From NCBI RefSeq assembly GCF_963853765.1, contig NC_088853.1, positions 75,702,001 to 75,766,000 on the forward strand: a DNA stretch of 64,000 nucleotides, in the 5' to 3' direction. The first letter of the stretch is position 1, and every line of letters starts with the position of its first letter. The position numbers and the translations under genes are program-made. The stretch is from Magallana gigas. Lineage: Eukaryota. Below the pieces are notes generated by a model. It saw only the letters and a list, made by a program, of their open reading frames with translations. It did no database searches and was not told the origin of the DNA. Shown here piece after piece: positions 33,465 to 64,000 of this stretch.

Positions 33465-34442
33465 CCTTGTAGGGTCCATTTGCCTGAATTCATAACGCAA
33501 AACAAAAATCTTCGTGCGCTTGTCAACAACAGTAACGGCAAATGATATGAAGACAATTTAGGAATTTTCCGCTGTTTGGCGCTGCATAAGGGACATTTAT
33601 CAAATTTGGAGACACGAACCAAAAGTTTATATGAGGCTTGGTGACAGTATCTACAAAATCAGGACGATCAGCACGAATGCCCTCCGTATGATGAGTATCA
33701 TGGACTTGATTTAATTCGAGAAATACACGAGTTTGAAAAATGTTTTGAAGTTTGTGTTAACATTTTTAATTTGCGAGAAGATGGAACAACGCTTCCAGAG
33801 AGACGGAGTGTATGTAGATTGAAAGAGCAAATGAACTTGAACAGATGTGAAAGCCATTTGTCCTACATAACGAATTAAAAGGCCTATTCCAAGAAATATC
33901 AGTGTCAAATCTGCGAGACATTTTTCCCCACAGCCTGGTTGTGTTTAAAACATGAACGGATTTGCAGCAATAAAACGAAATTTAAATTTCTTGGAGGATT
34001 TCACGTAGGGAAAGAAAACATATTCGAGCAGTTTTTTTTGAGCAGGAATTTGGTTGTGTTGTCCCCGCACATGATAGAGTTTATGAATGGTTCATAGTAT
34101 TAGATTTTGAAGCAATTTCACGTCCGGAATCTTGACATAACACGCGACAGGAAATTACAGTGCCAAGCTGAGCACGTTCCTATTTCTGTGAGTGTTTATT
34201 CAAATGTGGAGCACTACAAAGAACCCATTTGTTTTGTTGAAGAAGATCCGGACAAATTGATTCAAGTGATGGTGACCTACATGGAGGAGATTGCAACTCA
34301 CTGCAAATCACTAGCGCTGTACAAATGGGGTGCAGTATTAGAGAATTTAGAAGAAAAACTAGACTATTGGAGACAAGAAGAGGAGAAGGCTGAAAATAGT
34401 TTAGCCCCAATAATGATGATAAACAAGTTGCTGACCTTTAAA
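33465..34442 (+). pseudogene. Outer element: N-terminal part of a protein-primed DNA polymerase B (Polinton group-2 type), decayed
   Basis: Fragments GRVHLPEFITQN...YEDNLGIFRCLALHKG, HEFEKCFEVCVNIFNL...HLSYITN*KAYSKKYQCQIC, LDFEAI and HVPISVSVYSNV...EPICFVEEDPDKLI, with stops and frameshifts; ends ...NKLLTFK at the Helentron junction. Confidence 0.75.
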
Positions 34443-34547
34443 AAAGGACTACAATACGTGGACCATTGGCATGTGTTTAATATAAGAAACTAATTAAGAA
34501 TTTTTAGTGAAACACTTATGCCCCTTGCCTTACAATATCTGCGAAGA

Positions 34548-34751
34548 AAGTGAAAAGCTGTCAATGTGACAGCAAACCAGGTTTTCTATCCATAAACCAT
34601 GTCAACCCTCAATTAATAAACACTAATCTACCTACCGTATCCAATGAAATGGAGTACGATAAATGCAATATTTTGCCAAAAGAAGACTAAGTTCAGAAGC
34701 TGGTATTTTTTCATAAATTATCAGAAATCAAAATCCTAGCAATATGCAAAC

Positions 34752-34829
<78 letters not shown>

Positions 34830-35118
34830 ATTAATCTGCAAAAGAACAACTCCCTATTTTGAAAACTGTAAGAGTAGTTGTTGCAGTGTACAATGAGGGT
34901 ACCCTATATGCAATATTTTGCCAAAAAATGAATAAGTTGACTGTTCAAAAGGCGGTATTTTTCATAAATAATCAGAAATTAAATCTTAGCAATATGCACA
35001 CCTCTGATATATGTGCAATTAATCTGCAAAGAACAACAATATTCTTTTGGCAGCCGCCCGCCCGCCATTTTCATAATTTCAATAACCCTATTTTATGTTG
35101 GAAAATCCGACTAAAAAT
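34548..35118 (-). mobile_element. HINE copy, same family as 27384-28474, opposite orientation
   Basis: AAGTGAAAAGCTGTCAATGTGACAGCAAACC end, about two degenerate 180-bp units, GCCGCCCGCCCGCC, and GGAAAATCCGACTAAAAA end. Confidence 0.8.
34757..34824. repeat. (AT)34 microsatellite
   Basis: Pure AT run inside the HINE unit. Confidence 0.95.
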
Positions 35119-36329: not shown

Positions 36330-36990
36330 GTAATCGAGTTGAATGTTGATACAACTCTTTTGCGAGTTTGTGAACAATAAACAAAACAATAATGATATTT
36401 TTCCAAAGTTCATAGTGGTATAATATCAACTGAATATAAAAAAAGAACTGCGCAAGTCACTGAACAAATTTGATACTTGTTACATCAGTTGCAGTGCAGT
36501 TGAATGTTTATGCAACTCTTTTGCAAGTCTGTCAACAATAAACAAATGATACTCTTCCAAGTTTATATTGGTATAAAATCAATTGAAAAAAAAAAGAACT
36601 GTGCAAGTCACTGAACAAATTTGATACTTGTTACAGCAGTTGCAGTGCAGTTGAATGTTTATGCAACTCTTTTGCAAGTTTGTCAACAAAAAACAAATGA
36701 TACTCTTCCAAGTTTATATTGGTATAAAATCAATTGAATAAAAAAAAAGAACTGTGCAAGTCACTAAACAAATTTGATACTTGTTACAGCAGTTGCAGTG
36801 CAGTTGAATGTTTATGCAACTGTTTCGTAAGTTTGTCAACAATAAACAAAACAATAATGATACTCTTCCAAGTGCATACTCGCCATACTAGTATAAAATC
36901 GATCAAATAAAAAAAGAACTGTGCAAGTCACTGAACAAATTTGATACTTGTTACAGCAGTTGCAGTGGAGTTGAATGTTTATGCAACTCT
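36330..36990. repeat. Tandem ~150-165-bp repeats (4-5 units) in the Helentron 3' region
   Basis: AAAAAAAGAACTG(T/C)GCAAGTCACT(G/A)AACAAATTTGATACTTGTTACA recurs at ~36440, 36587, 36744 and 36910. Confidence 0.9.
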
Positions 36991-38831
36991 TTTGCAGGTT
37001 AATTGTTTGATAGTGTTATTTATCATGTGAAACTTGATGTCAGCTGGAATTATTTCAAAGAATTTGAGGAGAAGCTCAGTTTGGTCATTGCTGGAAGGAA
37101 GTGTGAAACCCCTTGAAGTGAACAGCTTTTCAATCTTAGGCTTAAATATTGCTACTTTCTGGGGAGGTTGTTAGAATCTTCTACTTCAATCATAACAGTA
37201 GCACGTATGTAGTTATTGCAAGCGCTCTCCCCATAGTTTCTCCCGCAGTTTTTGCAATTCATGCATTGGATGGATTCAGCTGGAGCAAGTTTCGTGTTAT
37301 TGCATGAAGTAGTGGGACACGCTAGGTATGGATCGACATCGAACACTGCGGTGATGGTTCCACTCTTGAAATCAGAAATGGGGGCGTTACCCCAATTTCC
37401 ATTATTGTCCACATCATCATCTTCATCGTCAGACACCAGCAGAAGAGTTTCATCATATGCAAGTTTCTATAATTTAATAAAAGTAGTGAGAAATATTAAA
37501 TTTCCTGATGATTACTGTTACTTATATTTACTGGTATGTTATATTACCTTTTCTTTCTATGCATCCTCATCAGATTACATTTCGAAGTTTCAGATTAAAC
37601 AAGGCGCCTAGGGGCCACATTGGTCACTTCAGCACACATGACCCACTAACATGAGTGATTGAAGTAGGTTTATGTCGTCAAACACAAAAAATTCAAGTAG
37701 GTAAATAATGTCTTATTCTAAAGTATTAGAACAATATTGCAGAATACACTGTTTTGGCAATTTTCTAAACCAATTTTTGGGCTTTAGTGATGTTACAGTG
37801 ATCATTATTTTAATAACTGAAAATAAAATTTTATGAGGAATCTTTTATTAGAATATCACTTCATGACAGAGAATTTCTTCCAAGATTTCATTTTACGAAA
37901 CATGGTAAATTTGTAATTGTAATTAAAAAACTATACTATTGACTATATGTGTACAACAATATAATTTTATTTTACAAAACTTGGTACATTTGTAATTGTA
38001 TTTAAAAACTATACCTATATGTGCAACAACGAACCTCACATTGGGATGATCTTGTAGTGGTAAGGCGTTTCTGCTCATTAAACAAACGGACCCTGCACTT
38101 TGTAATGGTCACACATTCTCCCTTTTGTAGTGTATTCACCATCTTGTCCCACACTGCAACTGTTGCGTGACTGTCTGTATCTTTCAACATGACCTCTTGG
38201 AAATCTACCTCGTTTTGTTCTACCCTTTTCTTGCTTGCTGGTGACAGCTGTATGAAAATTAGAATACATAATTATAGAAAATGAAAGAATTTTTAACAAG
38301 TACTTTTTATTTTATGCTTTAATGATTCATATTTATGTGATGATTAAAATAGATCAATTTAAATTCTAAATAATATATTTCACTCATTTAATATCAGAGT
38401 ACCTTAACAACTTTTCCCTTTACGGTAAGCAGCGTTTTTACAGGTGAAGCAAGTGCATTCTTTAAGGTCATTGTTTGTCCAGCAAGGGTTGGAGCATGAA
38501 GCCTGATCTCATCAGGAATAGTAAATGGTCTGCAAATGCCTACATCTGTTTTGCTTGTAACAGCTATAAAATTTTGCTTCATAAGAATGTTCATCAGAAC
38601 TACAGCCATTCCCTTAATAAATTTGTTTTGTTTCTGTACATCATAGATTGTTACTGATATCGCTGCGGTTTCATCAGCAATAATTGCATAGAATTTATCT
38701 TTGTATTGTGAATTTTCTGCTTTTTCAATGTCACTGACTTCAAGCACTACCCCTCGCACTGAAGGGGATGGTGGCAGAATGAGATCTTTCACTTCTTTGT
38801 CTTTAATATCTTTTATTTTCAGCATCTGCAA
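36979..38831 (-). pseudogene. Three-exon RPA70-like OB-fold/zinc-ribbon ssDNA-binding gene carried by the Helentron
   Basis: Exons 38831-38403, 38247-38035 and 37466-36979 join in frame across GT-AG introns. OB-like blocks (VRGVVLEV...YAIIADETAAISVTIY; VKGKVVK...VMLKDTDSHATVAVWD...GECVTITKCRV) and YLACPTTSCNNTK...CKNC zinc ribbon. One frameshift at ~37160. Confidence 0.72.
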
Positions 38832-38939
38832 TTTTCACAATATTGCATCATAATTACATATCATACATTTTGCAACTAATTCTTTGTGAATATAAATGAA
38901 ATGTGAAGCTTACTTGCAGTAAGAGGACAACTGATCTTA

Positions 38940-39751: not shown

Positions 39752-41430
39752 TTATTCTGTTAAAGAACAAAGTCTTGTATACTCTTCCAAAGCTTTGACA
39801 GGGGGTGTAACTTTCTGATAATTAAATGCCAGCAAATATAAACCTGACAATTTTTTGATTCTGCTTAAGGCAACATAAGCCATTCCATTTTCAAACACAT
39901 TGTTACCAATTGAAATGACTGCTTGTGATAAAGATGCACCCTGGACTTTATGGATTGTAGTTGCCCATGCTTGAATGAGAGGAAATTGCTCCCTAACAAG
40001 TATTCTTCCATTGTAATAAAATTCTTGACACAAGGGCTCAATAGCTATTGCATTATTATGTTCAACCCTTTTAAGAATACCTCCAATATGTGGGTCATCA
40101 AATTTAACATATATTAAGTTAACTTCTCCTGTCATTTCTTGGTGCATTTCTATTGACTCTACAAACCCAAGAGCTCCATTTACTAGTCCTTTTGATGTAT
40201 ATATATATTTTATTAACATAACCCTTGTCCCAATGGATATTTGTAACTGGCATGGTAACCCACCTGCATTTCTATCATCTACAGGGATATCATCATTAGA
40301 AAGAAGCCCCTTTTTTTCTATGTCATCTTGAGAAAAATAATGTTTAGCTTTGACCTCAATGCATTCTCGGCTTAACAACACTTGCATCTTGTTGTTATGT
40401 TGTTGAACTTCTTTAAGTGTGGGAAATAAATGAAGAAGGGAAGAAATATCTCTTTGTGGGGGCTTAAATAACCTCGACTGTAGAATTTTGAGATCATCTT
40501 CATTCAGTAAGCCAACTCTAGCTCTATTTAATACTGCAGCATATGTAACATTTTCAGATTGCCGTACATTTTCTTTGAGAATAAAAAGCTTAAAATTTGA
40601 CCATAGAATTGCATTTTCAAAGGCATATTTGCCTTTAACAGGTTTCAATTGAAGGAAATCCCCTATGACATTTACATTTCCGAATGGTTTATCATTATCT
40701 TTAATTGAAGTTAGCCTTCTATGAATGTATTCAAGAGTTTGTGCACTAACCATTGAAATTTCATCAATGATCAGTGTATGAACATATGAATAAGTGGATC
40801 TTAATTTCTTCAAACTTTTCCCAGATAATTCATGAAATTTGGGTTCATTTCCATGTTGCACTAGTAAATATAGTGCACTATGGATTGTAATTCCCAAGAT
40901 ATTTCTAGCTGCTGTTCCAGTTGAAGCACATACCATTACTGGAGATTTTCCACAAACAATTGAGCAACAGCAGTTTAACCAGTCAATAATCAGTCTTGTG
41001 AGGTAACTTTTTCCAACTCCTGCCCCAACACTAATAAACATGCAAAGTTGCTGAGAATTATCTTTGTTTTTATAATGATTAAAAATGTAATGCATATCAG
41101 TTTTTTGACACCTTGTTAACCTTGCTATTCTGCTTTTTATCTCGTCAAAAGATATAGATGATGTACTAATTTCATTGATGTGCAGCTCATCACTATTTTC
41201 ACAACTAAGTTCATTTCCTACTTCTCTACTCAAATGAACATCAACATCATCCAAGTTATGAGGGTGTGATACTGATAATGAGGGATCTTCCAAAAGACAG
41301 TCATCATCAACATATAGATGTTCAGAAGTAGATGGGGCAATAAAAGCCTCCATCTCTTTTACAGAACACCGAATAAATCGAACTGCATTTTCAATTTCAT
41401 CTACTCTTAAAAGTCTAATTGCATGTTCTG
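39752..41430 (-). pseudogene. RepHel C-terminal PIF1-family (SF1B) helicase
   Basis: 533-aa ORF: AGVGKS (Walker A), LIIDEISM (Walker B), GDFLQLKPV, LKENVRQ, QFPLIQAWATTIHKVQG, YVALSR. Linked to Rep by a frameshift at ~41430. No C-terminal endonuclease. Confidence 0.93.
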
Positions 41431-43049
41431 TCTTTTAGCAATAAATGCATCTCTTGCTGTGCTATATGTTGAGGTTTGATTTTTTTGTGTAAGTTCTTCA
41501 TTTTGATGGGGTAAAAAGCACATCAAGAGACTGTAAAAGTAATCATCAGATGACCATGGCAACTTTGGGAGGCGAATTATCAAAAATTTTAATCTCTTTC
41601 GCATTATGACATGTTGAAACGGAGGCCTTAATCTTATACGTGGTTGCCTACTTGAAGAAGCGACAGATATATCAACATCTTTGTCTGCACACTTAACATA
41701 CCATTGCGAAAATTCAAATAAACATAGATTGAATAGTTCAATTGGACGTGCATGATAATAATCTATCATATTGTTGTAAAATATATCTGTACTTGTATTA
41801 TCTAGTTCCTCTCGTTCTTGTTTTGATTTAAGTACGCGGAACCTCTTTTCTGGTGGTTTTGTATTTAGTGTCAAAACTGACCTTGAGGAAATTATCAAAT
41901 TCAAATCTGGGAGAAGCCTATAAGCTGCTTCTTGTGCACTTAATTTTCTTGACTTTAAAACACAATATCCAATTTTTAGCATTCTAGAAGACTGAGACGA
42001 AGCAGGCATTTGATTCAAGTTGTTAATGACTTTTGACAATTCAAATTTTAAATTTTCAGGCTCTGCTTCACATAAGTAAGCACATACATAATAAGCAGCA
42101 GATTCACAACTACCTATCACTTGTATGTCCATGTTTGCTTGCCAATGATTCAAAATAACTGGGTTAAAAGCATTTATATAACAATCATCTGTAGTGCGTT
42201 CAGTTTCATAAAACTTGCCTTTGATAATGTTTGACTGTAAATCTACATTACTCAAAATGCATGTTTCCTTCATTTCTCTAAATGGAAAACCAAAGCGACA
42301 GCGGCCAGTTTTTCTCAAACAGTAGTCAGAATGACGATAAGTTTGAAATTTTGAAGCAAACTGACTTGTGCTGTGTTTTGTGCTTATAACATCATTGATA
42401 TACCTTACAAGCTTTTTGTGGTCACTAAATATTTCTGAAAAATTTTCAATCCAAAAGAAGATATGAAAATGTGGGCTTCCGCGAATTTGGAATTCTACAC
42501 GCACGAAGTAATCAACTACTTTTCCTAAAGGCATTAAGGGTCCGAGAATAACATCTTTCAGTAGGATCCCAAACCGCCCTTGAAAATGAAGTGCTGTCAA
42601 AACTGGGTCATTTTTCACCAACTGTAAACAGTTTGTCATGTTACATGCTTTTTCGTAGCTACAACAGTCCAGGGACATTATTAGATCGGGCCAATGCATG
42701 TCATTAGCTGATAACGTCACAAATAAGCTAGGAGGTCCCAGACATTTAAACATTGCCAATAAATTTAATACCTTTCATGAATTTCATAAACATGTAAGAG
42801 TTCTGCAACAAGTCAGGATTACTTGAAATGTTATTTACATCTGATGCTGTTAGCAATCCAGTGCTTTTTCTCATTCTCATGTGAATACTGACAGCATTTA
42901 ATAATCTCTCTTTTTCGTAATAGTTCACTGCATGCAGTAAATAGGAAATATCTTTTCTAAATCTACCATCTTTATAATACATTCTACACTTAAAATATTT
43001 GGAAGGAGTTAATCTTGCAGGTCTCTCATGACCAAATCCATTAACACCT
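41407..43049 (-). pseudogene. RepHel HUH replication-initiator (Rep) region
   Basis: FVTLSAND (motif 1), VEFQIRGSPHFH (motif 2, HUH), YYVCAYLCEAE (motif 3). A deletion/frameshift at ~42750 lies between SYMFMK and LLAMFKCLG. Confidence 0.92.
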
Positions 43050-43055
43050 TGTGGA

Positions 43056-43272
43056 AGTAGTAGGGGGGTGGTGATACTAGCACACATCAACTCCACCCAC
43101 TGTACTATATAATACTACAGTGGGTGGAGTTGATGTGTCGAAGGCTCTGCATAATAATTATGCAGAGCCTTCGAGCCTTTTGATTTACATTAGTACTATA
43201 TACTATATAATACTACAGTGGGTGGAGTTGATGTGTCGAAGGCTCTGCAGGCTCTGCATAATTATGTAAAAT
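43056..43272 (+). repeat. Polinton left TIR (217 bp)
   Basis: Exact reverse complement of 58725-58941 by base-by-base reading. Confidence 0.95.
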
Positions 43273-43744
43273 AATACCTATGCAATATGTAAATTAACTC
43301 AAAAGGCTTGAAATGTCATCCACCTACTGTACTATATAATACCTATGCAATATGTAAATTAACTAAAAGGCTTGAAATGTCATCCGCCTACTGTACTATA
43401 TAATACCTACGAAATATGTAAATTAAGTCAAAAGGCTTGAAGTGTCGATTAGCATACTGTACTATATAATGTCTACGAAGTATGTGAATTAAGTCAAAGG
43501 CTTGATTGCTCTGCATAATCAACCTCGCCTATTGTAATATATAACATCTACGAAAAATGTAAATAAGGTCAAAAGGCTCAAGATCTAACTCCACCCCATA
43601 TGATAATATGCAAAAGGCTTAAAAAAAAACCAAAAATATATATAATTAACAACAATTACAAATGTACATAAAATGATTGTATAATTGCATCATAAAAATG
43701 TCTATTGCAACATGCCTGATGTATATAAAAATAACAACAAAAAA

Positions 43745-44161
43745 TATATAATACTACAGTGGGTGGAGTTGATGTGTCGAAGGCTCTGCATAATAATTAT
43801 GCAGAGCCTTCGAGCCTTTTGATTTACATTAGTACTATATACTATATAATACTACAGTGGGTGGAGTTGATGTGTCGAAGGCTCTGCAGGCTCTGCATAA
43901 TTATGTAAAATAATACCTATGCAATATGTAAATTAACTCAAAAGGCTTGAAATGTCATCCACCTACTGTACTATATAATACCTATGCAATATGTAAATTA
44001 ACTAAAAGGCTTGAAATGTCATCCGCCTACTGTACTATATAATACCTACGAAATATATAATTAACAACAATTACAAATGTACATAAAATGATTGTATAAT
44101 TGCATCATAAAAATGTCTATTGCAACATGCCTCATGTATACAAAAATAACAACAAAAAATA
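43745..44161 (+). repeat. Internal direct duplication of left-end sequence
   Basis: 43745-44056 copies 43106-43417 (offset 639); 44051-44161 copies ~43636-43748. Confidence 0.9.
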
Positions 44162-44496
44162 AAATAAGAGCATTAATCACTATTAATCACAAATGTATAT
44201 CAAATGATTATTTATAATGCTGGAATAAAAACATAAACTCACTATCAACTGTATCATAAACAAAAAAAAAAAGTTTCCATGCCTCATGTATGTAAAAAAA
44301 TAAAAATACATAAAATCACTATCAATCACAAATGTACATCAAATGATTATTTATAATACTGAAATGAAAATGAAAAATTCAACAAAATTTTACAATATTA
44401 CATAAAATGATTGTTTGCAGCATTGAAACAAAAATGAAAATAAGCAAAACTAATATACATGTATTAGCGGAACTTAAATATAATTTTGATAAGAAT

Positions 44497-44817
44497 TCAT
44501 ACAATTAATAAACTACGAAAAGAAGTCACTCCACTATCTGTAACAACATGCTGATTCAGGTCCTTACACCTTAATGGTGTAATTTCAATCGCCACAACTT
44601 GTACTGAACAGTCTCGGAGATCCAAGAGTCCATCGCCGTCGAAGCGATCAAAGTAAAGGATGGGGATGTCATCAATACAGCCCCTGTACCATCCTCCACC
44701 ATTCCACATGCATTTTCCAGCACTATCACAAATAGAGTCCAAAGGCTTGCCATGCATGCGAGCAAACAGCATGATGATAAGAATGAAAGAAACGGTACAC
44801 ATGTTCATGTTTGCCAT
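44497..44817 (-). CDS. Small putative secreted Cys-containing protein (106 aa; possibly first exon only)
   Basis: Hydrophobic N-terminus (CTVSFILIIMLFARMHG) followed by five Cys; inside the Polinton. Confidence 0.5.
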   Translation of the reverse strand: MANMNMCTVSFILIIMLFARMHGKPLDSICDSAGKCMWNGGGWYRGCIDDIPILYFDRFDGDGLLDLRDCSVQVVAIEITPLRCKDLNQHVVTDSGVTSFRSLLIV

Positions 44818-45620
44818 TTTCTTTTCACTTCGGCGTGTTCCTTCGCATTTAATGAATTTCGAGCCCGATTTTATTGTTTCAATTTAAATGAGATATAATG
44901 GGATATATATATATTTATTTATATAAAACAGCCTGTTTGTGTTCAATTCCATTTAATTTTACGATTTTATATATATTTTGAACTTAATAACTTGATATGT
45001 TTTGTTTACTTCTTTATTAATAAGTTCTTAATTTGCAATCTTTCAATCTTATATTTAGCTTTAATTAAAAATTTAATGCTGAAATATTGTTTATCAGACA
45101 GTACTGTTTTCAAGGACGAGTCAATGGTCGAGAAGTTATTATATACATTAAAACTTTATTGTGTAAAAATATCTATCATATCAAATTTTCATCAGTTGTA
45201 TATATAAAAAGTTCGAAGTCTGACATTACCATAATATTATAATATATAAAAAAAAAAAAAAAAAAACAGAGGCAAAGGTTACGAACAACAGGGTAATTGG
45301 CAATACACATCCTTACATACGTTGAGTAATCAAAATCAAGAGTCATAAAATTTGCAAGACTAAAGCTGTTTACTTCTTTACAAGACAATAGTTGTTTGCT
45401 ATATTTTGAACTTTTCAACTATAATTTATATATCATATGCTGAGTAATCAAAATCAAGAGTCACAAAATTTGCAAGACTAAAGCTGTTTACTTCTTTACA
45501 AGAAATAGTTGTTTGCTATATTTTGAACTTTTCAACCGAAATTTATTATTGAAAGGGTTATTAGAGAGTGTATATATATATGAAAAAGTTCAAACACTGA
45601 CGACGCATCTAAAAGCAGTC

Positions 45621-46433: not shown

Positions 46434-46563
46434 GATTCATGACCATCTTGGCTGTAGATAGAAATCATTTATTCAGGAAATGTGTTAATCAAGAATATTA
46501 ATACTCGATCCAAGAAGCGGAAGAAGTTACCCTATTTTTAATTATTTTAACAAGATCCAATCT

Positions 46564-51734: not shown

Positions 51735-51740
51735 GCCTAT

Positions 51741-52543: not shown

Positions 52544-52547
52544 AATT

Positions 52548-53205
52548 CTACATTGGTAAGTATAATATTGTTTCCTGTTCTGGAAAAATGTTAGAAGACA
52601 GTCGGTATCTCTCTGATGTGCCAGGATAGAGTGTCACACATAAGTAAGAATATGGAAGTTCGGTCGCCTTCTTATAAGCATCCATGAAATACTTTGATTG
52701 GTTAGGAAAAATCTGACTACCTAAAGTTCTGACTTGTCGCTCATCACGTGGATTCTTAAATAGTATTATATAATGCGCATTTAAAGATATGGTTCTCATA
52801 TACTTTCCGGGAGGAAAAATATTTTGCAGTAGGAATATCACAGTTATACCCATGTGATGTGAATAAGTTGTAAACAAGTTCATTTACTCTACATTATTTG
52901 TTCCTTGACCCATGACATCGTCCAATACCAGTAATATGCTTCCATGTTCATTGGAAAATCTTTCTAAAATATTTTTATCTGGAATTCCCTGGTGAAAGGT
53001 AATGGAATTAACTACTGTCTCCATTTGCTCAAATAATGGCTGCCAAATTCCGAAAACATATAGTATATGCTTAATATCCGATTCAAATAGTTCCAGGTGT
53101 TTCAGCAGAGAAAATACAAATGTGGATTTTCCTGCATGCGATTGTCACAATTATGTTGCTGTTAGCTTTAAATTTAGTCACGATTTCATGTTCATTATCA
53201 GCCAT
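52548..53205 (-). pseudogene. A32/FtsK-like packaging ATPase, disrupted
   Basis: QSHAGKST (Walker A, frameshifted), LLVLDDVM (Walker B), SHH, QNIF...RTISLNAHYIILFKNPRD. Two frameshifts and an in-frame TAA at 52884-52886. Confidence 0.9.
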
Positions 53206-53290
53206 CCTTCAAAGAAATCCAGTAATGAAATGAATACGAAGAAGGAAAATGCTCTGTATTTATTTATTAAAAAGTGTGTATATGTATATA

Positions 53291-53767
53291 TCATACATGA
53301 TTTGTTAAGCATAATGAAAATGTGCGAGTAATAAATTTAAGTACAAATGCATCATTGATTTCACAAACAGGTGATAAGAAATTCAAAAACTCTTGAAATG
53401 AAACATCTCGAACTCTAAGGAAAAGATACAAAATAGAATAATGTCCACATACTAAAGAATTGGAACATTGAATGTCGATATGATTAACGTATATTTTGTC
53501 ATTTACTAGTATTTTATGAAATTCAATAAGACTTTTATCACTCAGGTTTCCTAGACTGTCAAATATTTCCACATTATTCCCATCATTGTAAACAGCTAAC
53601 CAATGTTCTCCCTCATGACCGGATGGCTTTGTATTTACTATTAATCCTCTTTGTGCTTCTAACTTCTGTATTTTATCTGCTGAATAAACACCAATTATCG
53701 TGTCTTTCATCAGTGGATCACATGCTATCATACATTTTAGTTGCACACTGCTGAGAGCCGACATCAC
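53291..53767 (-). CDS. Adenovirus-like cysteine maturation protease
   Basis: IVNT...GEHWLAV...EIFDSLG...Q...SLVCGHY (H-D-Q-C). Confidence 0.92.
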   Translation of the reverse strand: MMSALSSVQLKCMIACDPLMKDTIIGVYSADKIQKLEAQRGLIVNTKPSGHEGEHWLAVYNDGNNVEIFDSLGNLSDKSLIEFHKILVNDKIYVNHIDIQCSNSLVCGHYSILYLFLRVRDVSFQEFLNFLSPVCEINDAFVLKFITRTFSLCLTNHV

Positions 53768-53768
53768 T

Positions 53769-55094
53769 TCACGAGGTTATTATATCTCTGGCTTGGTTAA
53801 TTTCGAAAAGAGCGGTGTATTGCCCCCACACAATAGCCGTTACTGTCTATGGTAGAGCTACTCCAAACTGTGCTTCTAGACGTACATTACCCTGTTTAAG
53901 TAATGTTAAATACTCTCCTTGTTCGAACGTAGGCTCTAAATCAAAACAGAATATTACATTACCACCCTCTGCAAATTGTTTTCTATTTATAGCATTTCCT
54001 CCATCAAAGAGCCATTTTCCCGCATTGTCAAATAAATTCACGAAGGCTGAGACTATGCTATCTCCATTGACGCTGTCAAATGTAAGCTTTATGGGTGTAT
54101 TACCTACTGGAATTCCATCGCTATACAAAGCGATTTGGTTTATGTTGTAGTGTTGAAAATTGAATGGATTTTTGGTAAAATCTCCTGCCACTGCTTGTGA
54201 GGATACAAAAGCAACATAGAGTCTGTCTGGTCTGGTACCTGAAAACATATTTTCGATGGAGATGTTCAGCAGCCCCTTCGCAAGACTATACATTTTCACT
54301 GTGCTTTTTTTGAATGGATATTTGGCTGTGGTGGTTTCCAACATCTTGGCATGACTAAGTATCACAGCTGGATTAATTTTGCATTTACAAACTCGTAAAA
54401 TAACTTCCACTAACTTAATAATGTAATTTTTCCCGTCAGCGCTATTCGAAAGAAGACAAAATTCAGGTCTCGTGCGGTAGAATTTGAGGGAGATACCAAC
54501 TTGATTTAAAATATATATATCCATCTGAAATAGTTCATGCATGATTGGTCCTTCCAGGTCGAGGGTCTTGCTTCCCTTGATAAGCAGGGCTCGTTTTAAC
54601 AATCCTCCATTTTTTCCTGATTTGGCATTGACGTCATCAAATTCACCCGAGTTATCAATCTCCCATAATTGTGAAGTCAGCTGAGAAGATTTTGCATCAC
54701 CCCCATAATTTATGAGAGTATTCAGCATACTAAGGTATGGATAATGCGCTCCTGAGCTATTGATTGGCTTGTTCTGCATCGATACATCCACCTGACTGAA
54801 AAGTGATGATAAAAGCAAGTTCACTGGGCCAATTACGTCACCATCTTCAAGCACTGTGTCTCCATTCATGACTTTTAGCTTAACATAAAGTCTACTTCTT
54901 TTAAGATCGATGTAGTCCATTCCATTTTGTGCGGATAGTTGAAATTCTATTGGTGAACTATCTGAGATTTGTGATATCGGGCGAACATCTTGGAAGTAAA
55001 TGTTTTCTACTGCAGTCTGGGTGGGTGGTAAATCAAATAAAGAAAGCTGACTAGGCATAGCTTCTCTAAAACTTTCACTGGATAAAATCGACAT
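53769..55094 (-). pseudogene. Major capsid protein (double jelly-roll), with in-frame TAG 25 codons before the natural stop
   Basis: SQLSLFDLPPTQTAVE...SPIEF...YIDL pattern. After TAG at 53847-53849 the frame continues TVTAIVWGQYTALFEINQARDIITS*, ending next to the protease ATG. Confidence 0.9.
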
Positions 55095-55097
55095 GTT

Positions 55098-55538
55098 TCA
55101 ATATAATCCAAAAACGTCTGATTTTAGTTTTACAATCTTATTTCTTTTGGTTGTAGGTCCGCTCTCTTTCTTGCTCGACTTCTGACTGGTACGCTTCATG
55201 ACTCGCTTCCCCTTTTCAATAGTTTTCTCCCTCTTAGTTTCACTTTTTGCCTGCTCCACCACCTGCTCAGCTGGTGAGGTAACATTTATTTTTTGCTTTA
55301 CATCTCGATCAGTAGCCCCTCTTGTGTAGTTGTCTATGGATAGCATATATGGTGAGGTTTTGTTTCGTAATCCACCACCTCGTTGATATCCTTTCATCGT
55401 ATGATTGGTATAAGGATTTACATCACCATTACCTACCCGCATGTAAAACATTGTCCATTTTTTAGTGTCGGGTACATACAGAGTTTTATTGACATCCATT
55501 CTTAAAATGGATATCGTATTAAATGAAGTGTAATCCAA
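55098..55538 (-). CDS. Conserved basic Polinton protein (putative core protein)
   Basis: YQRGGG motif and VTSPAEQVVEQAKSE followed by a K/R-rich tail; lies between mCP and MCP. Confidence 0.6.
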   Translation of the reverse strand: MDYTSFNTISILRMDVNKTLYVPDTKKWTMFYMRVGNGDVNPYTNHTMKGYQRGGGLRNKTSPYMLSIDNYTRGATDRDVKQKINVTSPAEQVVEQAKSETKREKTIEKGKRVMKRTSQKSSKKESGPTTKRNKIVKLKSDVFGLY

Positions 55539-55963
55539 ACGTCTGAATTAATGAATGTGGCGGGTAAATGACTGTCATCCCTTAAATACAAATGTAGGTC
55601 AGAAAGGTGAGTGACCCTAAGGGGAATGTAGTACGCAGGATAAAATTTGTCATTCCAACCGTAAGATGGATCCGCTTGGATGATTCGAAGCAGAGGTTGT
55701 TGATGGCCATTGACGCTTGAAAAATCACACACATTTGAATAAACAAATAATGATTTATGCTGAAATGTCGTTATGGGTTTTGAAGTTAATGCGTCAATGA
55801 CTGTCTTTTTCGTTGAAGACAGAGTAAAAAACTCGGTTATACCAATTTTCCAAAAGCCTTGTAGATCCAGAGCGTTGTCAAGGTGAATTTTAAAATCGTA
55901 TGGTTTATTTTCAGGATAATAGTCCCTGCATTCGTCAGACTTGACAAATATATACTTTTCCAT
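55502..55963 (-). CDS. Minor capsid (penton-like) protein
   Basis: SD....YPENKPYDFKIHL...L.G.W.IG..E...LFVYSNV...S.V.....PLLR pattern and position. Confidence 0.8.
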   Translation of the reverse strand: MEKYIFVKSDECRDYYPENKPYDFKIHLDNALDLQGFWKIGITEFFTLSSTKKTVIDALTSKPITTFQHKSLFVYSNVCDFSSVNGHQQPLLRIIQADPSYGWNDKFYPAYYIPLRVTHLSDLHLYLRDDSHLPATFINSDVWITLHLIRYPF

Positions 55964-57101
55964 TACTTTGAACTTAGATTGACGATGTCAGATTCCTTAA
56001 CCCACTGGTTAAACTTCTCTGGCCAAGATTCAAATTTAATGAACAATTCTTTCTGTCCTTTCCGTACACGCTTCTTGATTACTTTCTCAATAAGCCATAA
56101 GGAATCTTCGCTTTTGTCAACTTTTTGTAGATCGTTTTCGTAAAAGTCTCCTTCAATTAATTCCTCGTTAAAATCTCTGACTTTGTACATTGGTATTCCT
56201 TGTAGATGAAATCTTTTGGATACTTTGAAAATTTCTCCCGTAAATTGTTGATTATATCCCCGTCGAAAGATATGTTTTAAATGTGAAAGTCTGACTAAAT
56301 CGTTAATTTTATATCGATATCGAACGGTTCTTTGTTTTTTTTTCTTTGTGTTCTGTTTTCCACTTCTTTTAATTTTTTTAAGTAAAGTCTGGCCCACACA
56401 TCAGCCTCGTTTTCCTTTGTAACTTCATTTGGTGATAAACCGTGAAGACTTCTATGTGGTGTTGAATTATAATTTTCTACTACATCTGATAAGACATCTA
56501 CATATCTATGCGTTCTTTCTTTTTGAAAGTATCGATACAGTCTACCGCGAATTGTACGTATAACTCTTTCTGCAATAGATGCCTTTGAATTTTGATTGGC
56601 AAAGAAAATTCTGACTCCTTCATTTTTTAAATAGTTTAGTAGTTGTCGATTCTTAAATTCCCCTCCACGATCACTTCGTAATGTCTGACATTTCACACCA
56701 GATTCAAAGACCTGCTTAATAGCATTTAAAACATCTCGAGCAGATTTTTGTTTAAGAACTACAATTCGTAAATATTTAGAAAGTGTGTCTATCAATATTA
56801 GAAGAAATCTGATACCGTCATTTTCTTTTGATAGGTTTTGAACGTCCATAAGATCCATACTCCACTGAGCATTGATGCCACTGACACGAATATTAGGAAT
56901 CTTCAAAGGTCGACGGATCTGTCGCTGTAATGTATACGCATCCTGTTTTCTCAGCCATTTTGAAATAAAATGTTTACTGAATTTAAAGTCTTTGTTTGAT
57001 TTTAGTGCTTGATAAAGTTTTTCAGGCGTTGTAAATGCCGCAGGATTACGGATGGTATAATAATAAGTTTCAAGATACTGCGTCTTTTCCTTTTCACTCA
57101 T
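55963..57101 (-). pseudogene. Retroviral-like (RVE, DDE) integrase with C-terminal chromodomain; frameshifted
   Basis: WSMDLMD, LRSDRGGEF, SIAERVIRT, YNSTPHRS. The C-terminal part (IEKVIKKR...IKFESWPEKFNQWV) is in another frame; the shift falls in one of the A runs at ~56330-56385. Confidence 0.92.
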
Positions 57102-57107
57102 AATGTG

Positions 57108-57467
57108 TCAATAATTGCATGATATAGCATCCCTTTCCATTTCTGAATATAGTTTATCCCTCCAAATATCAGTAAGGCAATACATTTTCATGATATCAGC
57201 CAAATCTTGTATCTCTGCACGATCACAGTCATGATCTCTCAGCATAGTATGAAAAATATCTTGAATGTTCAGTTTCATATAGGCAAGCTCAAAACTCGTA
57301 ATTAGTTTAATGTGTGTCGAATCCATCAGACATGGATGTTCCGTTTGAGACGGATGATCTATTTCACAACCATTACATCTTTCCTTAGATATACTATATA
57401 TATCATCCCAAATAGCGTTGACACAAAGAGAAAAAAACAAATCGTAATATTCATGCTCTACTTCCAT
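57108..57467 (-). CDS. Conserved Polinton metal-binding protein (119 aa)
   Basis: CNGCEIDHPSQTEHPCL (CxGCxxxHPSQxxHxC) motif. Confidence 0.7.
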   Translation of the reverse strand: MEVEHEYYDLFFSLCVNAIWDDIYSISKERCNGCEIDHPSQTEHPCLMDSTHIKLITSFELAYMKLNIQDIFHTMLRDHDCDRAEIQDLADIMKMYCLTDIWRDKLYSEMERDAISCNY

Positions 57468-57590
57468 CGTTGAAACAGTTTATTCTGTCAGATGTGTAAT
57501 ACGATGTGTTATATACTTGTTTCACATTGTATTGATATTCCAGATGAGTGATTCTTTTTATTATAATCATCGAAAGCAAATGGAATTTCT

Positions 57591-58031
57591 TCACATGGAT
57601 TTCTTCAACAGTGAAGAATCGATATGATCCACTGAGTTCTTTAAATACTGCCACTGCATTTTGTTAAGTTGAATTCCATCACCAGTCCATTTTTCATCTC
57701 TGAATAGTCGAATATCTAATGTAATGCTACCCTCCAACTGACATATTCTTACGTAAATCTCATCACCGAGTGGATAGCTATCTACATATGGACATCTTGG
57801 GGGAGATGCTGTAGAATTCCAACACTTCCACTGAATACAATCGCTTATATTCAACTGCTCTTCGGTTTGGTTTTCTTTCAGAAGTATTGTGTTTACACAT
57901 AAAAGTATTATAACAACGGTTGAAATTATATAGAGTAAAACAAATTTAAGTTTTTGTTTCTGAAATGTTTTTTTGAATTCATCATCACAATTTGCTTCCA
58001 ATAAATTAGAAACGACGCTGACAGTTTCCAT
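57591..58031 (-). CDS. PC4/Sub1-like ssDNA-binding domain preceded by a hydrophobic segment
   Basis: C-terminal IYVRICQLEGSITLDIRLF...GIQLNKMQWQYLKNSVDHID matches the PC4 pattern; FVLLYIISTVVIILLCVNTILL lies upstream. Confidence 0.7.
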   Translation of the reverse strand: METVSVVSNLLEANCDDEFKKTFQKQKLKFVLLYIISTVVIILLCVNTILLKENQTEEQLNISDCIQWKCWNSTASPPRCPYVDSYPLGDEIYVRICQLEGSITLDIRLFRDEKWTGDGIQLNKMQWQYLKNSVDHIDSSLLKKSM

Positions 58032-58724
58032 TTTTATAGAAGAGAGTACTCCCCGTGGTATCTAAAGGTGAAATGATCAAATAAAATGATTTTTTGCTCT
58101 ATTTATATAGTGATGATTTTGGGGGGGGGGGGGGGGGAATATTATAAATAAAAAAATTGATATTAAAAGCAAATAAACGTGTGACTTAATCTAAATACAT
58201 GTATTTGATATACGTTAACAAATAGAATGGGTGTAACTTAAGATTTAGCTCGCAGTTCATTGTATATCACATGTCTGTGAACCTTCTGACCTTCTTACAT
58301 GTATATAGTTACTTTGATGATTAAGGCTTCAATTGACTGTATGTGATTATTTCGGTGAACCAATCATCGACTTAATTTACATATTTGGTAGAGATTATGT
58401 TGTATTGTGGGTGGGATTAGCCTTCCATCATTTGACAATTATGTAGAGCCTTCCGTCTGCGCCCTTTGATTTAATTTACATATTTGAGAGCCTTCCAGCC
58501 TTTGACATAATTTACATATTTTCTTGCTATTATAAAGTACTGTACTATATAATACTACAGTGAAAGGAGTTGATGTGTCGAAGGCTCTACAGTGGGTGGA
58601 GTTGATGTGTGCTGTCTTTCAAACATATAAATTCTTTTGACTCATAATTTTACATATATAGTAGATATTATATAGTACATTGGGTGGAGTTGCAATTATG
58701 CAGAGCTTCGAGCCTTTTGACATA

Positions 58725-58941
58725 ATTTTACATAATTATGCAGAGCCTGCAGAGCCTTCGACACATCAACTCCACCCACTGTAGTATTATATAGTATATA
58801 GTACTAATGTAAATCAAAAGGCTCGAAGGCTCTGCATAATTATTATGCAGAGCCTTCGACACATCAACTCCACCCACTGTAGTATTATATAGTACAGTGG
58901 GTGGAGTTGATGTGTGCTAGTATCACCACCCCCCTACTACT
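58725..58941 (-). repeat. Polinton right TIR (217 bp)
   Basis: Exact reverse complement of 43056-43272. Confidence 0.95.
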
Positions 58942-58947
58942 TGTGGA

Positions 58948-60922
58948 AACAAATGAGGGAATGCCATTTCCTCACCTTTTGGAGTGTCATATGCATTTAA
59001 TGGAGTAGACCTGCATCTTTTCAATGACAAATGAGGGATATCACTATTCAACAAAGTTTGAATATCAATGTGTGGCATTACATAATCTGATGGAATAACA
59101 GCATACTCTTCATAAGTATTATCAATGACAGCTAGTTCATTTTCTATGTTTATACCCTCTGGGATATGGTCAAAATTTAAAGAAATGTTGTCATATATTT
59201 GATTATGTGCCTTTAACCACAACAAGGCTTTTAATAGTTTGTCCTTTCTTACTAGGTGAGTTGGTTTTAAAATGTTGTTATTCTCATATGACACGGTGAT
59301 GACATTTGAATTTTTAAAGGTTTGAGGAAGTACTGAGACTTGATTTTGTAATTCTATTGGAAAATCAATAGCTAGTCCCTTTTCAGCTAATTGTCCACCT
59401 GGTAAAATCACCACTGTCATGAACACTTGAATTTTGCAAAGAAGTCTTTTTTCCATGTAAGTTAGGTTTTTGAGATAAAAGGGGATATTTCCTGGATCTA
59501 AAGCATTTAGTATACTATTGAATGGAGGCATTTCATTTTTTTTAATATGACTATGACAAAATGAACAAACAATGCTGCTAGCATTTATTTTATAAGCTTG
59601 TGTAAGTTGAAAATCATCCTTAAGTCTGTGGACCTGGTCATGATATAAAATTCTATCACAACTTGAACAAACAAAGGAAGGAGTCTGTTTAATTTCTCTG
59701 AAAAAAAATTTCCGAAATTGAATTTTTTGACAGATTTGACATTTGTTCAGAACTATTTTCATTTTCTATTGTGTTAACCTCCACACTCTCAGAAACTAGT
59801 GTGTAGTTTTCATCAAAGTTTGCATTTAGTACAACAAATCTTGGTGAATTTGCAAGCAAACTGGAATTAACAGATGCAAAATTATTGCAAATTCTTTTAT
59901 TTTTACGTGTATCTCCCCTTCTGCTTCCTACGTTTACATTCAGCAGAACAGCAATAACTATGTTCCAATAAAGATCTATTCAAATGATTTTTAATTGTTT
60001 TTCTTGATCAATCCTTTCTTGCTCTAAAGTTACAGCTGTTGTTAAATTCACATTTTGTATGAAATGTTGCAATATTTTTTCACTTTTAAAATAACTTTCA
60101 ACAAAAAATTCTTCACTGGTATATTTTTGCTTTACACTAGAACAATTCAATGTACTTTCACTTTGTGAATAATTTTTGTAGGAATTTAATGAAATGGTAT
60201 CTTCTGTACTGACATTACTTGTACTATAAGTATGTATTGGTGTCTGGTCCATGGTTTCCCCATGACTTCCCACGATTTCGGACTGGTTGTGCTTTAATAA
60301 TGACGGTCTTTGATGGTTGAACAAAACAGGAGAAATGTTATAAACAGATCCTGTGTATTCACTTGTTAAATATGCCAGTAAAGTATGTATATCAGTAAAC
60401 TCTAATAAAACAGCAGTTCCAAACGGATTGTGTTGACCAACGATATTTCTGCTCAAACACAAAATAATGCTCAGTTGTTCTGTTAAAGTTAATTGCAATA
60501 CTCAGCTGTTGGAATGTTGCCAGTAAATGATCTGAAACGTAAAACCCTGTCTCTAAAGCATCCATTAAGTTAGTTGCACCTACATCATGTGCCAGATTAT
60601 TTTCACCCACAACACCAAATAGAATGTCAGGATGTGTTATAGCATCCAATGCGACCCCATCTACCACAACAGTGTTTGGCATTTCATAGTGTGCAAGATA
60701 AACATTATCCCTCTGTCCCAAATCTCTAATTATACTGCCGTAGAGGGCGTCTCCTCGAAATAAAATATTGTCAATATCCGCAGAAGACAAATTGCATGTG
60801 AAATCGTAAGAGAAAAACAATGCTAATGCAAAGAATGCTATTGCAGTGCATTGTGAGCCACCATTAACAAATACAGAACTACCTTGATGCAATGATCCCT
60901 GTATTGTTCTTAAGAGAGACAT
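58948..60922 (-). pseudogene. RepHel N-terminal part: herpes tegument (peptidase C76/BPLF1-like) DUB domain, linker, C4 zinc finger and pre-Rep domain
   Basis: IQGSLHQG...GSQCTAIA...IDNILFRGDALY, then (shifted) RNIVG...GTAVLLEF. VCSSCDRILY...CSFCH; LTYMEKRLL...KGLAIDFP; EEMAFPHLFP at the Polinton junction. Several frameshifts. Confidence 0.8.
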
Positions 60923-61571
60923 TCTAAATAATTTTCTTAAATATTGCTTAGTCTTTTGACAAAAATAAGACTTTTTTTTTAAAATGCACTCCCCTAAAAT
61001 TGAATTTTCACAAGTTCCTACTTACCGTTGACATCTTGATCTTCACTTCGTCGCAGTTCGCGCCTTTCAGCTCTAGCATGTGCTTCTACTAAGTTCTAGA
61101 AATTGTAACGGGTGGTTTCGCTCCCATCACGTGTTCGCACTGAGAGGTTTCGGGCCGAGTGGTTTCGCCCCGTTTTAAAACATAATCATATAATAAAATG
61201 TACAGCTATATATGATCTTACAAATAAACGATCAAAGATTAAGCCGTTGTTTGATCAGTTGTAGTTTATACTACGCATTGGGACGAAATTGCTTGTGACA
61301 AAACATGAACACGGGGCGAAGCTAGCCGTGACCTCAAATTGAATCCCAATCCCGATCAACATTATACGGTGCCAATCGCAACTTCTCGGGCCTTTTCCGC
61401 AGGTTTTTCCGAGGCTGCCGAAAAGGGCCGAGAAGTTGCACGTGCCTTCTGGTGGCATCACATCGTAGCTGGTTGCATCATAACCACCGGGCATGCGCAA
61501 TCTAAATTTTCCCCAGTGCATCCGCTTTAACCTCGCTTATATATTTTCTGCGTGGACCTCAGGGTCCACGC

Positions 61572-64000
61572 AATGAACTTACGAAAATGCTTGGGAGATT
61601 TAACTTTTATTGTCAGCAAGTACCTGTGTTGGGATTTAATTCTGCACGCTATGACCTTAATCTCATTAAGAAAAGTATTGCAAAGCATCTCTGTCTCCAC
61701 GAATCTCAAGGAATAACAATCAAGAAAACAACTTGTACACTTGTTTGAGGTACGATTCCTGGACATAACAAACTTCTTAGCACCTGGTACTTCTTACAGT
61801 AGCTTTCTAAAAGCATATGGAATACCGGAAGCAAAGGGGTTTTTCCTTATGAATATCTAACAGACTTTTCGTGCTGAGAGAGAGCTACCACTTCACAGTG
61901 CTTTTTACAGCTCCTTAAAGCTATGTAACATCACTAATGAAGGAATACAATTTTTGTAAAGACATATGGAAACAAGAGATAATGACCTGTTTGCGAGATT
62001 TTCTAATCTGGTACAACAATTTAGATGTTGCACCATTCGTTAGTGGAGTATTAAGATTACAAGAGTTCTACTTCGGACGGAATATTGACATCTGTAAAAC
62101 CGCCATGTCAGTACCAGGAATTGCTCGTTAATCAGTACGAGTAGACGTTCCGGAGCCTCGTTTTCGTTGTTCGGAGAGGAGGACAAAAACTTATTCTATA
62201 CCGTAAAGAACAACATAATAGGCGGTCCGTCAACTGGCTGAATTGGCTCTCACATAATTCAGGACTGAACATTTAACACAAAATGAACACAGGTCACGAG
62301 AAGCGCATCTGACCATATCCAGTAGACGGTAATTGCAGCGAGACTAAGACTGTTTTCCAGTTCCACGGATGCTATTTTCATGGTCATGAATATGTTCTAA
62401 CCAAATCTATTCGGAATAAAAAGTGGCTAGAAACCAAACACCAAAAATGTCAACGTACAAAGGAAACCACGGACTACATAAAGCAACAGGGGTATCAAGT
62501 CATTGAAATTTGGGAATGTAAATATAAGGAGCTCAAGAAAGAATTTTCTAATCTTCGTACAATAATTGACGACTCTTTACCATCATTTTTGAAAAAGTTT
62601 AAAGGGACTGTCACAGAAAATCAAATTCTTCAAGACATCTATGACGGATCCTTGTTTAGAATGGTGGAAATTGACATCACTACGCCAGAGAAATGTGAGG
62701 ATGATTGGTAACGGCATTTGTCTCCATACGAGCATTTTGAAGAAATGGCGCCGATATTTTGCACTGTGAATAACCCTTTTGACATTATAGGTCAGCACAT
62801 GCAAGAGCACGTTACAAGCAATAATCTGAGCGAAAAACTCCGACGGTTATTAATCGGTGGAATGAGAGCTAGAAAAATACTTATCGCAGTGGTACCTTAG
62901 ACAAGGACTACAAGTCACCAGAATCTATCAGGTTGTAGAGTATGTTCCTATGCGATGCTTCCGAGAATTCGTGCGAGATGTTAGTGCAGCGCGGCGGCTG
63001 AGAGACACGGTTCCGTCGATGAGCGTCATAGCCGACACCCAGAAGTTGATCGGTAACTGCGGATATGGAGGACTAATCATGGACCAATCTAAACACAGAC
63101 ACGTTACCTATGTAAACGGGGCGAATGCAGCAAGTCAGGAAGTGAACAATCCTCCGTTAATGGCAGTGACGGAATTGCAGGACGAAGTGTATGAAGTATA
63201 AAAGGCTAAAAAGATTATTTTTGATTTACCCATTCAGCTAGGTTATTTTATTCTTCAGTACGCCAAGCTCCGGATGCTACAGTTTTATTATGACTTTTTG
63301 GATTCCCATGTGAATAGAAAAGATTTTCAATATTGCGAGATGGAAACGGACAGCGCGTACATGTCTATTTCGGGTAGTAGCTTAGAAGATGTTATAAGAC
63401 CCGAAATGTTGGTCAGCTACAGAAGGGACTCTACGCTTATTGCAGTGACGTGGATATTGAGGCTGATGACAAGTTTCACTGGTTTCCTCGACAATGTTGT
63501 GAAAATCACTAAAAATACGTCAAAAGAACCCCTGGGCTTTTCAAACTTGAGTTTGAGGGTGACGAAATGGTAAGTCTCTGCTCAAAGACCCACCTTGTGA
63601 GTAAAACACAATCCCGCGACATCAGGAAGCAATTGATAGCAGAGCAGATTCTTAGAAGGGCCAACAAATGTAATGTGAAACGGGCTCTTCATTCAATTCC
63701 AAAAACATGCCGCGTAGTGAAATTCAGTTGTAAAGGCGTATCCAAACGCTTTGTGGAATCACCTTTATATACCTTTTAAAGGGTATTGAAGACTAAATAA
63801 CACGGAAATGGTATCACCAAGGTTTTTTGTGCGCGCAATAATGGTGTTTTTACCTACCAACAGGAACGTTGCGGGTTTTCCTACTTTTATTACAAGAGAC
63901 AAGTTCAGTCTAATGGAGTCGATACAAAAGTGCTGGACATTGAGTTGTGCCCAGAAAAAAGGAATACCGACGATGCAAACATTCTATTAGACCTCATGGA
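61572..64000 (+). pseudogene. Outer element: remainder of group-2-type pPolB with VSR-like nuclease insert, decayed
   Basis: QQVPVLGFNSARYDLNLIK, FLDITNFLAPG, WYNNLDVAPF, NIIGGPS, VDG...TVFQFHGCYFHGH...GYQVIEIWEC (VSR-like), KLIGNCGYG, LQYAKLRMLQFYYDF, METDSAY, PGLFKLEF, SCKGVSK. Many stops and shifts; runs to the window edge. Confidence 0.88.

Follow-up and report, generated by a model that had tools for sequence, protein, structure and literature searches.

A young Polinton within an HLE2 rolling-circle element within an older decayed Polinton in Magallana gigas

The stretch of DNA analysed here (the window: 64,000 nucleotides of the oyster Magallana gigas, C1:75,702,001-75,766,000 of our genome G000) carries three mobile elements, one inside another. 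A young Polinton lies in the Rep-helicase (RepHel) gene of a rolling-circle element of the HLE2 (Helitron2-type) group, and this element in turn interrupts the polymerase gene of a Polinton that is older and decayed (Table 1). All four joints coincide exactly with element termini, both target genes abut codon-exactly, and uninterrupted forms of both are present in public data. Each inner element inserted into pre-existing DNA, and three successive insertions at one spot are by a wide measure the most probable history. A preliminary description had read the locus as a Polinton inside a Helentron inside an older Polinton-type polymerase; the three elements and their relative ages stand broadly, and the Helentron label does not. 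Nested transposon insertion is commonplace and every element here comes from a known group, so the nest matters little by itself; the split replication module of the outer family is more notable. A published report of a Polinton nested in a Helentron was not found, including in the accessible text of PMC10294476, with most subscription journals and Repbase outside the search, and this silence on one particular nest says little about novelty.

Both flanks of the young Polinton, each searched separately, are parts of a single Rep-helicase gene, which runs on the minus strand. Of 20 paralogue loci retrieved, 10 uninterrupted ones were tested, and in all 10 the flanks are one codon apart. The inverted repeats of the element are identical at 219 of 220 positions, with one mismatch, and start with AG/AGT as in Polintons. 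A 6-bp duplication is the signature of a retrovirus-type integrase, and the chance of a 6/6 flanking repeat, calculated from base composition, is 4e-4. Hence the inner pair proposed earlier, 43056-58947 as the element plus one TGTGGA, is borne out by the duplication copies, the termini and the one-codon spacing.

The empty site is seen in run X22, in which 7 reads, each with a different start, jump over 15,892 bases, that is, the Polinton and one TGTGGA copy. The search for empty sites suggested in the preliminary description thus found them, with the reservation that the reads may come from another locus. Among the best-supported rows listed for runs X23, X24 and X16 no such skip occurs. At the protein level, 16 of 41 RepHel database proteins reach the site; 14 read through it in frame, one is shifted and one ends there, and the Polinton end is read in none of the 16. 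P0097 matches the two flanks at 193 of 194 and 95 of 95 positions and is continuous through the site. Uninterrupted Logan proteins of this kind are either alleles of this locus or else close paralogues.

At the outer site the right junction is 61571|61572, as described before, and all 27 short copies of the HLE2 element terminate at the base corresponding to 61571. On the left, the junction falls at 34421|34422 (within the uncertainty of an A run), because short copies begin with the sequence of 34422-34478; the earlier position, ~34443, has to move 21 bp leftward. For the same reason the residues NKLLTFK, taken earlier as polymerase in a restored NKLLTFK|NELTK reading, come from the element's own end, translated in the frame of the polymerase; they are missing from natural uninterrupted proteins. 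Once the ends are corrected, the two polymerase pieces meet with a 0-nt gap and in the same frame in the closest paralogue; the insertion sits in an A/T run without target duplication. Both pieces occur in order at 15 of 15 paralogue loci, 13 of them in one frame, which confirms that the two halves come from one protein. The gap between them in the other paralogues ranges from -21 to +246 nt, and there is a variable loop there. Alignment to uninterrupted family members, proposed earlier as a check, thus gives continuous or ordered genes at both sites.

Database proteins agree with this. Twenty-seven of 47 pPolB2 proteins reach the HLE2 site and none of the 27 reads into the HLE2 end; P0106 and P0112 are identical to the polymerase flanks at 88 of 90 and 52 of 52 positions. 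Of the 14 pPolB2 proteins scored, eight finish in shifted frames identical to those of the window copy, which suggests that the old gene was probably broken before HLE2 arrived. A programmed -1 frameshift at KGFFPYE of the old polymerase, where the window copy, the paralogue and many Logan proteins shift, was considered and rejected, because P0011 and the fused paralogues keep their frame across the motif and a T run occupies the site. Six of the 27 uninterrupted proteins (P0013, P0032, P0102, P0105, P0113 and P0115) have lysine at the HLE2 site and the others glutamate; the lysine matches the first residues read from the element end, and may be a plain variant or an excision footprint.

By its sequence, the middle element belongs to HLE2 and would function like a Helentron. 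Helentrons owe their name to a C-terminal apurinic/apyrimidinic (AP) endonuclease. This domain was not found: the helicase stops in the window and in the relative on contig C6 alike, no frame of at least 50 amino acids lies between that stop and the OB-fold gene, and no endonuclease family was matched in a Pfam search of the element. We therefore call the element HLE2 and not Helentron in the strict sense.

With the HLE2 group, as far as the accessible text of PMC4067079 and PMC11417382 goes, the element shares subterminal repeats with an inverted copy at the 5' end, a 3' hairpin, a T-rich target without duplication, the RGSPH Rep motif, the DUF6570, Herpes_teg_N, HIN and Ssb-like OB domains, and many short non-autonomous partners. 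It differs in the missing AP endonuclease, which sets it apart from Helentrons in the original sense, and in a single-strand-binding gene downstream of RepHel. The accessory domains Herpes_teg_N, DUF6570, HIN and Ssb-like OB are nearly exclusive to HLE2 in the HELIANO survey (PMC11417382), and Thomas et al. (PMC4067079) name the serine in Rep motif 2, the subterminal repeats and a TT target among the marks of the Helentron group, both as far as seen in the text available. In the window Rep motif 2 reads YFVRVEFQIRGSPHFH, the RGSPH motif with S between G and P.

The short partners define the ends. The 24-nt 5' terminal hairpin has 420 exact copies in the assembly (564 Mb, 29 contigs, the scope of all own-genome searches here) against 0 for a control pattern. 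Both ends are carried by 13 of the 27 short copies (782-1103 bp), whose other end is 89-96% identical to 34422-34478, and for the remaining 14 a left end on the same strand was not found within 1.5 kb. An A follows the plus-strand end in 26 of 27, consistent with a TT target without duplication. The 3' hairpin of the window copy folds less well than that of a short copy, and tandem arrays of the short partners were not found. The middle element thus ties a coding HLE2 to short oyster elements, a link that, in the text available, the oyster HINE survey could not make for its own families (PMC7492417); the end motif of the short partners was not found in the text of its Cg_HINE table file. The only coding HLE2 relative in the assembly, on C6, is 87-93% identical, has the same stop position and lacks the stretch that holds the Polinton site. 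This relative (C6:13,478,472-13,487,429, L074-L075) is a deleted one, and a piece of its 5' end stands on the strand opposite to the rest.

We suggest the following order of events. Step 1: The pPolB2 polymerase of the old Polinton would already carry the frame breaks that are common to HLE2-free forms. Step 2: The HLE2 element would enter the A/T run of this gene with no duplication. Step 3: The Polinton would insert into RepHel and leave the 6-bp duplication. Measured against the closest relative within the assembly, divergence increases from inside to outside, with 0.4% for the Polinton, 7-13% for HLE2 and 27-29% for the old element. Because of this gradient, and since a second composite was not found, we infer that the Polinton arrived last and in place. 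The order given in the preliminary description is therefore supported as to entry into existing DNA, while the arrival of the Polinton after HLE2 had settled here is probable from the relative ages. A second HLE2::Polinton composite is missing from the assembly, in which the sister Polinton is flanked differently and searches with the DNA of the RepHel region returned the window alone.

Several observations weigh against this history. An independent record of the filled junctions was seen neither in the reads (best-supported rows, over a stretch not including the left outer junction), nor in the proteins cited above, nor in metagenome contigs, where scans with the flanks gave no match. HLE2 depth is ~2-4x pPolB2 depth in three raw-read runs (~8 vs 1.8, 7 vs 4.0 and 3 vs 1.6), so that the empty-site reads may derive from another locus; in the contig run the two are about equal (40-46 vs 38). 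A pPolB2::HLE2 allele without the Polinton was not seen at the locus, which bears on the certainty of the order. The last two points fit a history in which the Polinton first hit an HLE2 copy elsewhere and the 27-kb composite was then copied into the old polymerase with the Polinton as cargo; the RepHel of the composite being broken, another RepHel would copy it in trans. The junctions would look identical under either order, both HLE2 ends are intact and common to hundreds of short copies mobilised in trans, and P0097 attests a near-identical uninterrupted RepHel in other animals. However, the donor composite is absent from this assembly, a 27-kb cargo jump demands one extra event, and differences from the reads of other animals are denser in HLE2 (21 over 2.6 kb) than in the Polinton (19 over 15.9 kb), among the 40 differences listed of a table with 223 further rows. 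We regard transport as cargo as rather improbable.

Fusion of three repeats by the assembler would likewise account for the missing record of filled junctions. Several frame breaks of the window are unseen in the reads of other animals, and the assembly or the haplotype thus carries private errors or mutations. Yet misassembly is highly improbable, because each of the four joints coincides exactly with an element terminus, the 6-bp duplication is perfect and both targets abut to the codon; moreover, filled forms are presumably under-recorded, since short-read contigs break at high-copy ends. Three successive insertions therefore remain our preferred history. The nest is unusually clean, with empty forms at both levels.

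The old polymerase had been recognised correctly in the preliminary description, which missed that it is part of a decayed Polinton running from ~32977 to ~5.9 kb past the window end. One eroded terminus alone was recovered, the other was not found, and the target duplication is unreadable. The nearest paralogue (C1:6.12-6.135 Mb) is 71-73% identical to the old element. The part beyond the window also contains a membrane-protein-like gene; the old element keeps a protease-like open reading frame (ORF) and a capsid scrap, and close relatives keep ATPase, chromodomain, minor capsid and partial major capsid pieces. The best named matches of the polymerase are from Haliotis, Tegillarca and Pecten. 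A VSR insert is a mark of mollusc pPolB2 according to Jeong et al. (10.1101/2023.08.22.554363, as far as its text was available), and the outer polymerase shares it, the matching genera being among those used in that paper. In the mollusc VSR pPolB2 Polintons of that source, zinc fingers, terminal protein, a vOTU with cysteine and polymerase form one ORF, whereas in the outer element this ORF is split and the vOTU has glycine.

The split is seen as follows. The old polymerase lacks the first ~200 residues of its fused relatives and starts behind an acceptor-like TTGTAG (ending at 33472) that is common to the paralogue; this start coincides with the border between terminal protein and vOTU. The zinc fingers and the domain that precedes vOTU in fused forms are found on the other strand, at the far end of the element, with the same layout beside the window and at C1:6.12-6.135 Mb, that is, in both copies that keep both parts. 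The N-terminal gene has intron-like gaps, one in the copy at the window locus and three in the paralogue (by a simple pattern). It ends with YILN and a stop in 3 of 4 genomic copies (TAA, TGA and TGA), and P0264 and P0267 end at the same YILN border. Between the old element and the paralogue, third codon positions account for most of the differences in either gene (154/252, 249/433 and 174/337), as expected if both genes were selected after the split. We conclude that the outer pPolB2 family likely encoded its terminal protein as a separate, presumably spliced, gene at the opposite genome end. A stand-alone terminal protein would prime replication in trans, with no need for cleavage from the polymerase.

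The model of the separate N-terminal gene (predicted local distance difference test, pLDDT, 78.6) is alpha/beta, and its RPDSKW loop carries a serine ahead of the final strand. In a tree of a 73-column piece the window copy joins the paralogue (99/96), with little else resolved. The fold match with the highest probability (0.90, E 0.11) is A0A7D4VFN9, a C2H2 protein (560 aa) from Drosophila-associated adintovirus 2, which may be a further stand-alone terminal protein.

Together with the split, the vOTU domain has changed. Its cysteine column holds glycine in both split copies (DNLG in each), whereas all 10 fused genomic copies have cysteine, as do 86 of the 88 database relatives aligned pairwise at this column. 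The other 62 of the 150 database hits are unaligned at the domain end (30), continue with the column unaligned (20), or end before the border (7) or at it (5). We take this column to be the catalytic OTU cysteine, from its conservation and from known OTU motifs, and accordingly the vOTU protease of the outer family is predicted to be inactive. A fused terminal-protein/vOTU protein, P0227, has serine at the column, which means that cysteine loss is not strictly tied to the split; it is a 233-aa fragment and could be decayed.

In the available text of Krupovic et al. (PMC11161782), the N-terminal domain of such polymerases is the terminal protein, and vOTU is proposed to cut it off. The same source describes a Stylophora coral polinton with a separate terminal-protein gene and a catalytically active vOTU, and adenovirids in which the terminal protein is split off and vOTU inactivated. 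The outer element shares the split at the terminal-protein/vOTU border with both; with Adenoviridae it also shares the replaced predicted active-site residue of vOTU, unlike the coral polinton, where vOTU is active. In contrast to either, it is an integrated pPolB2 Polinton with both changes, intron-like gaps and the gene at the opposite end and strand. Beyond PMC11161782, a published polinton with a split or intron-bearing terminal protein or a dead vOTU was not found, in a search that left most subscription journals, Repbase and supplements outside.

Hence, we think it fairly probable that the oyster pPolB2 family independently reached the adenovirus state, with a relocated, intron-containing terminal-protein gene, a dead vOTU and continued replication under selection. 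The protease would have died once cleavage became unneeded. To our knowledge, adenovirids do not integrate. Split and cysteine loss together are the coupling proposed for the origin of the adenovirus layout, for which the accessible text of PMC11161782 contains no polinton case; if true, the pPolB2 case with its far-end gene is a further independent test of this proposal.

Some evidence speaks against such a module. The vOTU retains a second cysteine four positions further along; in the copy at C1:58.79 Mb the stop is replaced by GGA; in the P0118 cluster, 4 of 6 members continue beyond the stop position into unrelated sequence; the polymerase start is kept in two copies only, and no copy with both termini was found; and Foldseek with the separate N-terminal gene gave no match at E<=0.001. 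The N-terminal piece might instead have arisen by rearrangement in an ancestor that was dead or non-autonomous, or be an exon that also stood upstream of the polymerase and has since been lost there. All four copies are decayed, one lacks the stop, and the acceptor-like site at the polymerase start implies that an upstream exon existed. On the other hand, the terminus in the window lies only ~500 bp upstream of the acceptor, too short for an N-terminal gene of more than 1 kb; the stop falls on the domain border, with different stop codons, in copies ~39% apart; third-position bias is seen in both genes; and the cysteine change is confined, among the genomic copies, to the split ones. We therefore consider these alternatives unlikely and favour the separate terminal-protein gene. 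A long inverted repeat carrying the N-terminal exon at both ends was also considered and rejected, as a second copy of the exon was not found within 43 kb leftward and there is no room for it inside the terminus.

Table 1. Features of the nested elements (window positions unless a locus is named; strand. where none applies)
Feature	Position	Strand	Remarks
Eroded left terminus, old Polinton	32977-33096	+	68% over 122 nt to AGTAGTAGT-starting terminus at C1:6,122,898; 63% to copy at C1:64.42 Mb
Old pPolB2, left piece: vOTU-like region and exonuclease start	33473-34421	+	33-36% identity to mollusc pPolB2; 5 stops, frameshifts
HLE2 rolling-circle element	34422-61571	-	27,150 bp with insert, 11,258 bp of own DNA; ends common to short copies
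HLE2 3' end: subterminal repeat CGTGGACC (on +, ~34457-34464) and terminal hairpin	34422-34478	-	
RPA-like single-strand-binding gene	36982-38834	-	Several exons or pieces; Pfam HIN 4e-8, Ssb-like_OB 8e-5, Rep_fac-A_C 0.037
RepHel downstream part, Rep and PIF1 helicase	39752-43055	-	Frameshifted; Helitron_like_N 2e-21, PIF1 5e-22
Target duplication, left copy TGTGGA	43050-43055	.	Read in sequence
Young Polinton	43056-58941	-	15,886 bp; AGTAGT...ACTACT ends; 220-bp inverted repeats
Partial duplication at Polinton left end	43106-43405 = 43745-44044		
PC4-like ORF, young Polinton	within 43056-58941		
pPolB, young Polinton	47775-51740	-	Several pieces, one gap intron-like
ATPase-like ORF, young Polinton	52551-53144	-	One stop; label presumed, no Pfam match
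Adenovirus-type protease, young Polinton	53294-53776	-	Pfam Peptidase_C5 6e-5
Putative major capsid, young Polinton	53850-55097	-	Label presumed, no Pfam match
Putative minor capsid, young Polinton	55505-55987	-	Label presumed, no Pfam match
Chromodomain and rve integrase, young Polinton	55966-57107	-	Pfam Chromo 1e-6, rve 4e-10
Target duplication, right copy TGTGGA	58942-58947	.	Read in sequence; empty-site reads
RepHel upstream part, Herpes_teg_N and DUF6570	58948-61021	-	Frameshifted; Pfam 2e-5, 2.5e-20
HLE2 5' terminal hairpin (subterminal repeat and inverted copy)	61549-61572	-	-12.7 kcal/mol, 10-bp stem
Old pPolB2, right piece: rest of exonuclease, polymerase motifs	61572-63990	+	29-57% identity to mollusc pPolB2; many stops, frameshifts
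VSR endonuclease insert, old pPolB2	62313-62708	+	E 2.4e-6 to solved Vsr structures
Protease-like ORF, capsid scrap, PC4-like gene, old element	L067:70-1520	-	Beyond window end
Separate zinc-finger and terminal-protein-like gene, old element	L067:4849-5878	-	Beyond window end

The young Polinton resembles Polintons/Mavericks (adintoviruses) of the Beta/pPolB1 type (PMC8502044; 10.1101/2023.08.22.554363, in the text available) in its size of 15.9 kb, inverted repeats, 6-bp duplication, pPolB, rve integrase with chromodomain, adenovirus-type protease and capsid-/ATPase-like ORFs. It differs from them in nothing substantial, apart from being a copy broken in several frames. Its polymerase gene, which is in pieces, is 20-33% identical to pPolB2 proteins (best E 2e-21) and matched neither VSR nor PF03175; we assign it, on this comparison, to the probable class pPolB1, the Alpha and Beta classes being those of PMC8502044 as far as its text was available. 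The ORFs labelled capsid and ATPase have relatives at 24-54% identity in other Polinton-like loci. These labels are our presumption.

A sister Polinton at C1:10,490,347-10,508,784 is 99.56% identical over 13,614 bp, with its own duplication GCCTGG and unrelated flanks, and thus the young Polinton has spread recently. Close to its left end the sister (L118-L120) carries a private 2.7-kb insert, and each of its flanks holds transposon-like ORFs. An ATPase stop shared by both copies was considered and rejected, since the stops are at different codons. An 80-nt GT...AG gap near the 3' end of the polymerase gene (48247-48326, minus strand) is identical in the sister and is a likely intron. The inverted repeats hold a near-perfect 57-nt palindrome and 64-bp subterminal repeats (43082-43138 and 58859-58915). 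Frame breaks in 43056-58941 and 58948-61021 that are absent from the reads of other animals, some of them in single-base runs, are either private to the haplotype or assembly errors.

Satellite-like arrays, including a 151-bp and a 168-bp array, are found at 27469-28368, 34650-35040, 36337-37000 and 10199-11066. Five 180-bp units lie outside the nest, and the unit recurs inside the 3' region of HLE2, inverted and split by a (TA)34 run. To the right of the window end, a Polinton-like gene set with long open frames (PC4-like, protease, capsid-like, chromodomain, integrase and ATPase-like) occupies ~1,500-7,600 of locus L068, 13.5-19.6 kb from that end and 8-14 kb to the right of the old element, and a further fused pPolB2 lies at C1:75.793-75.797 Mb. 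Polintons are thus clustered in this region, close to the end of the contig.

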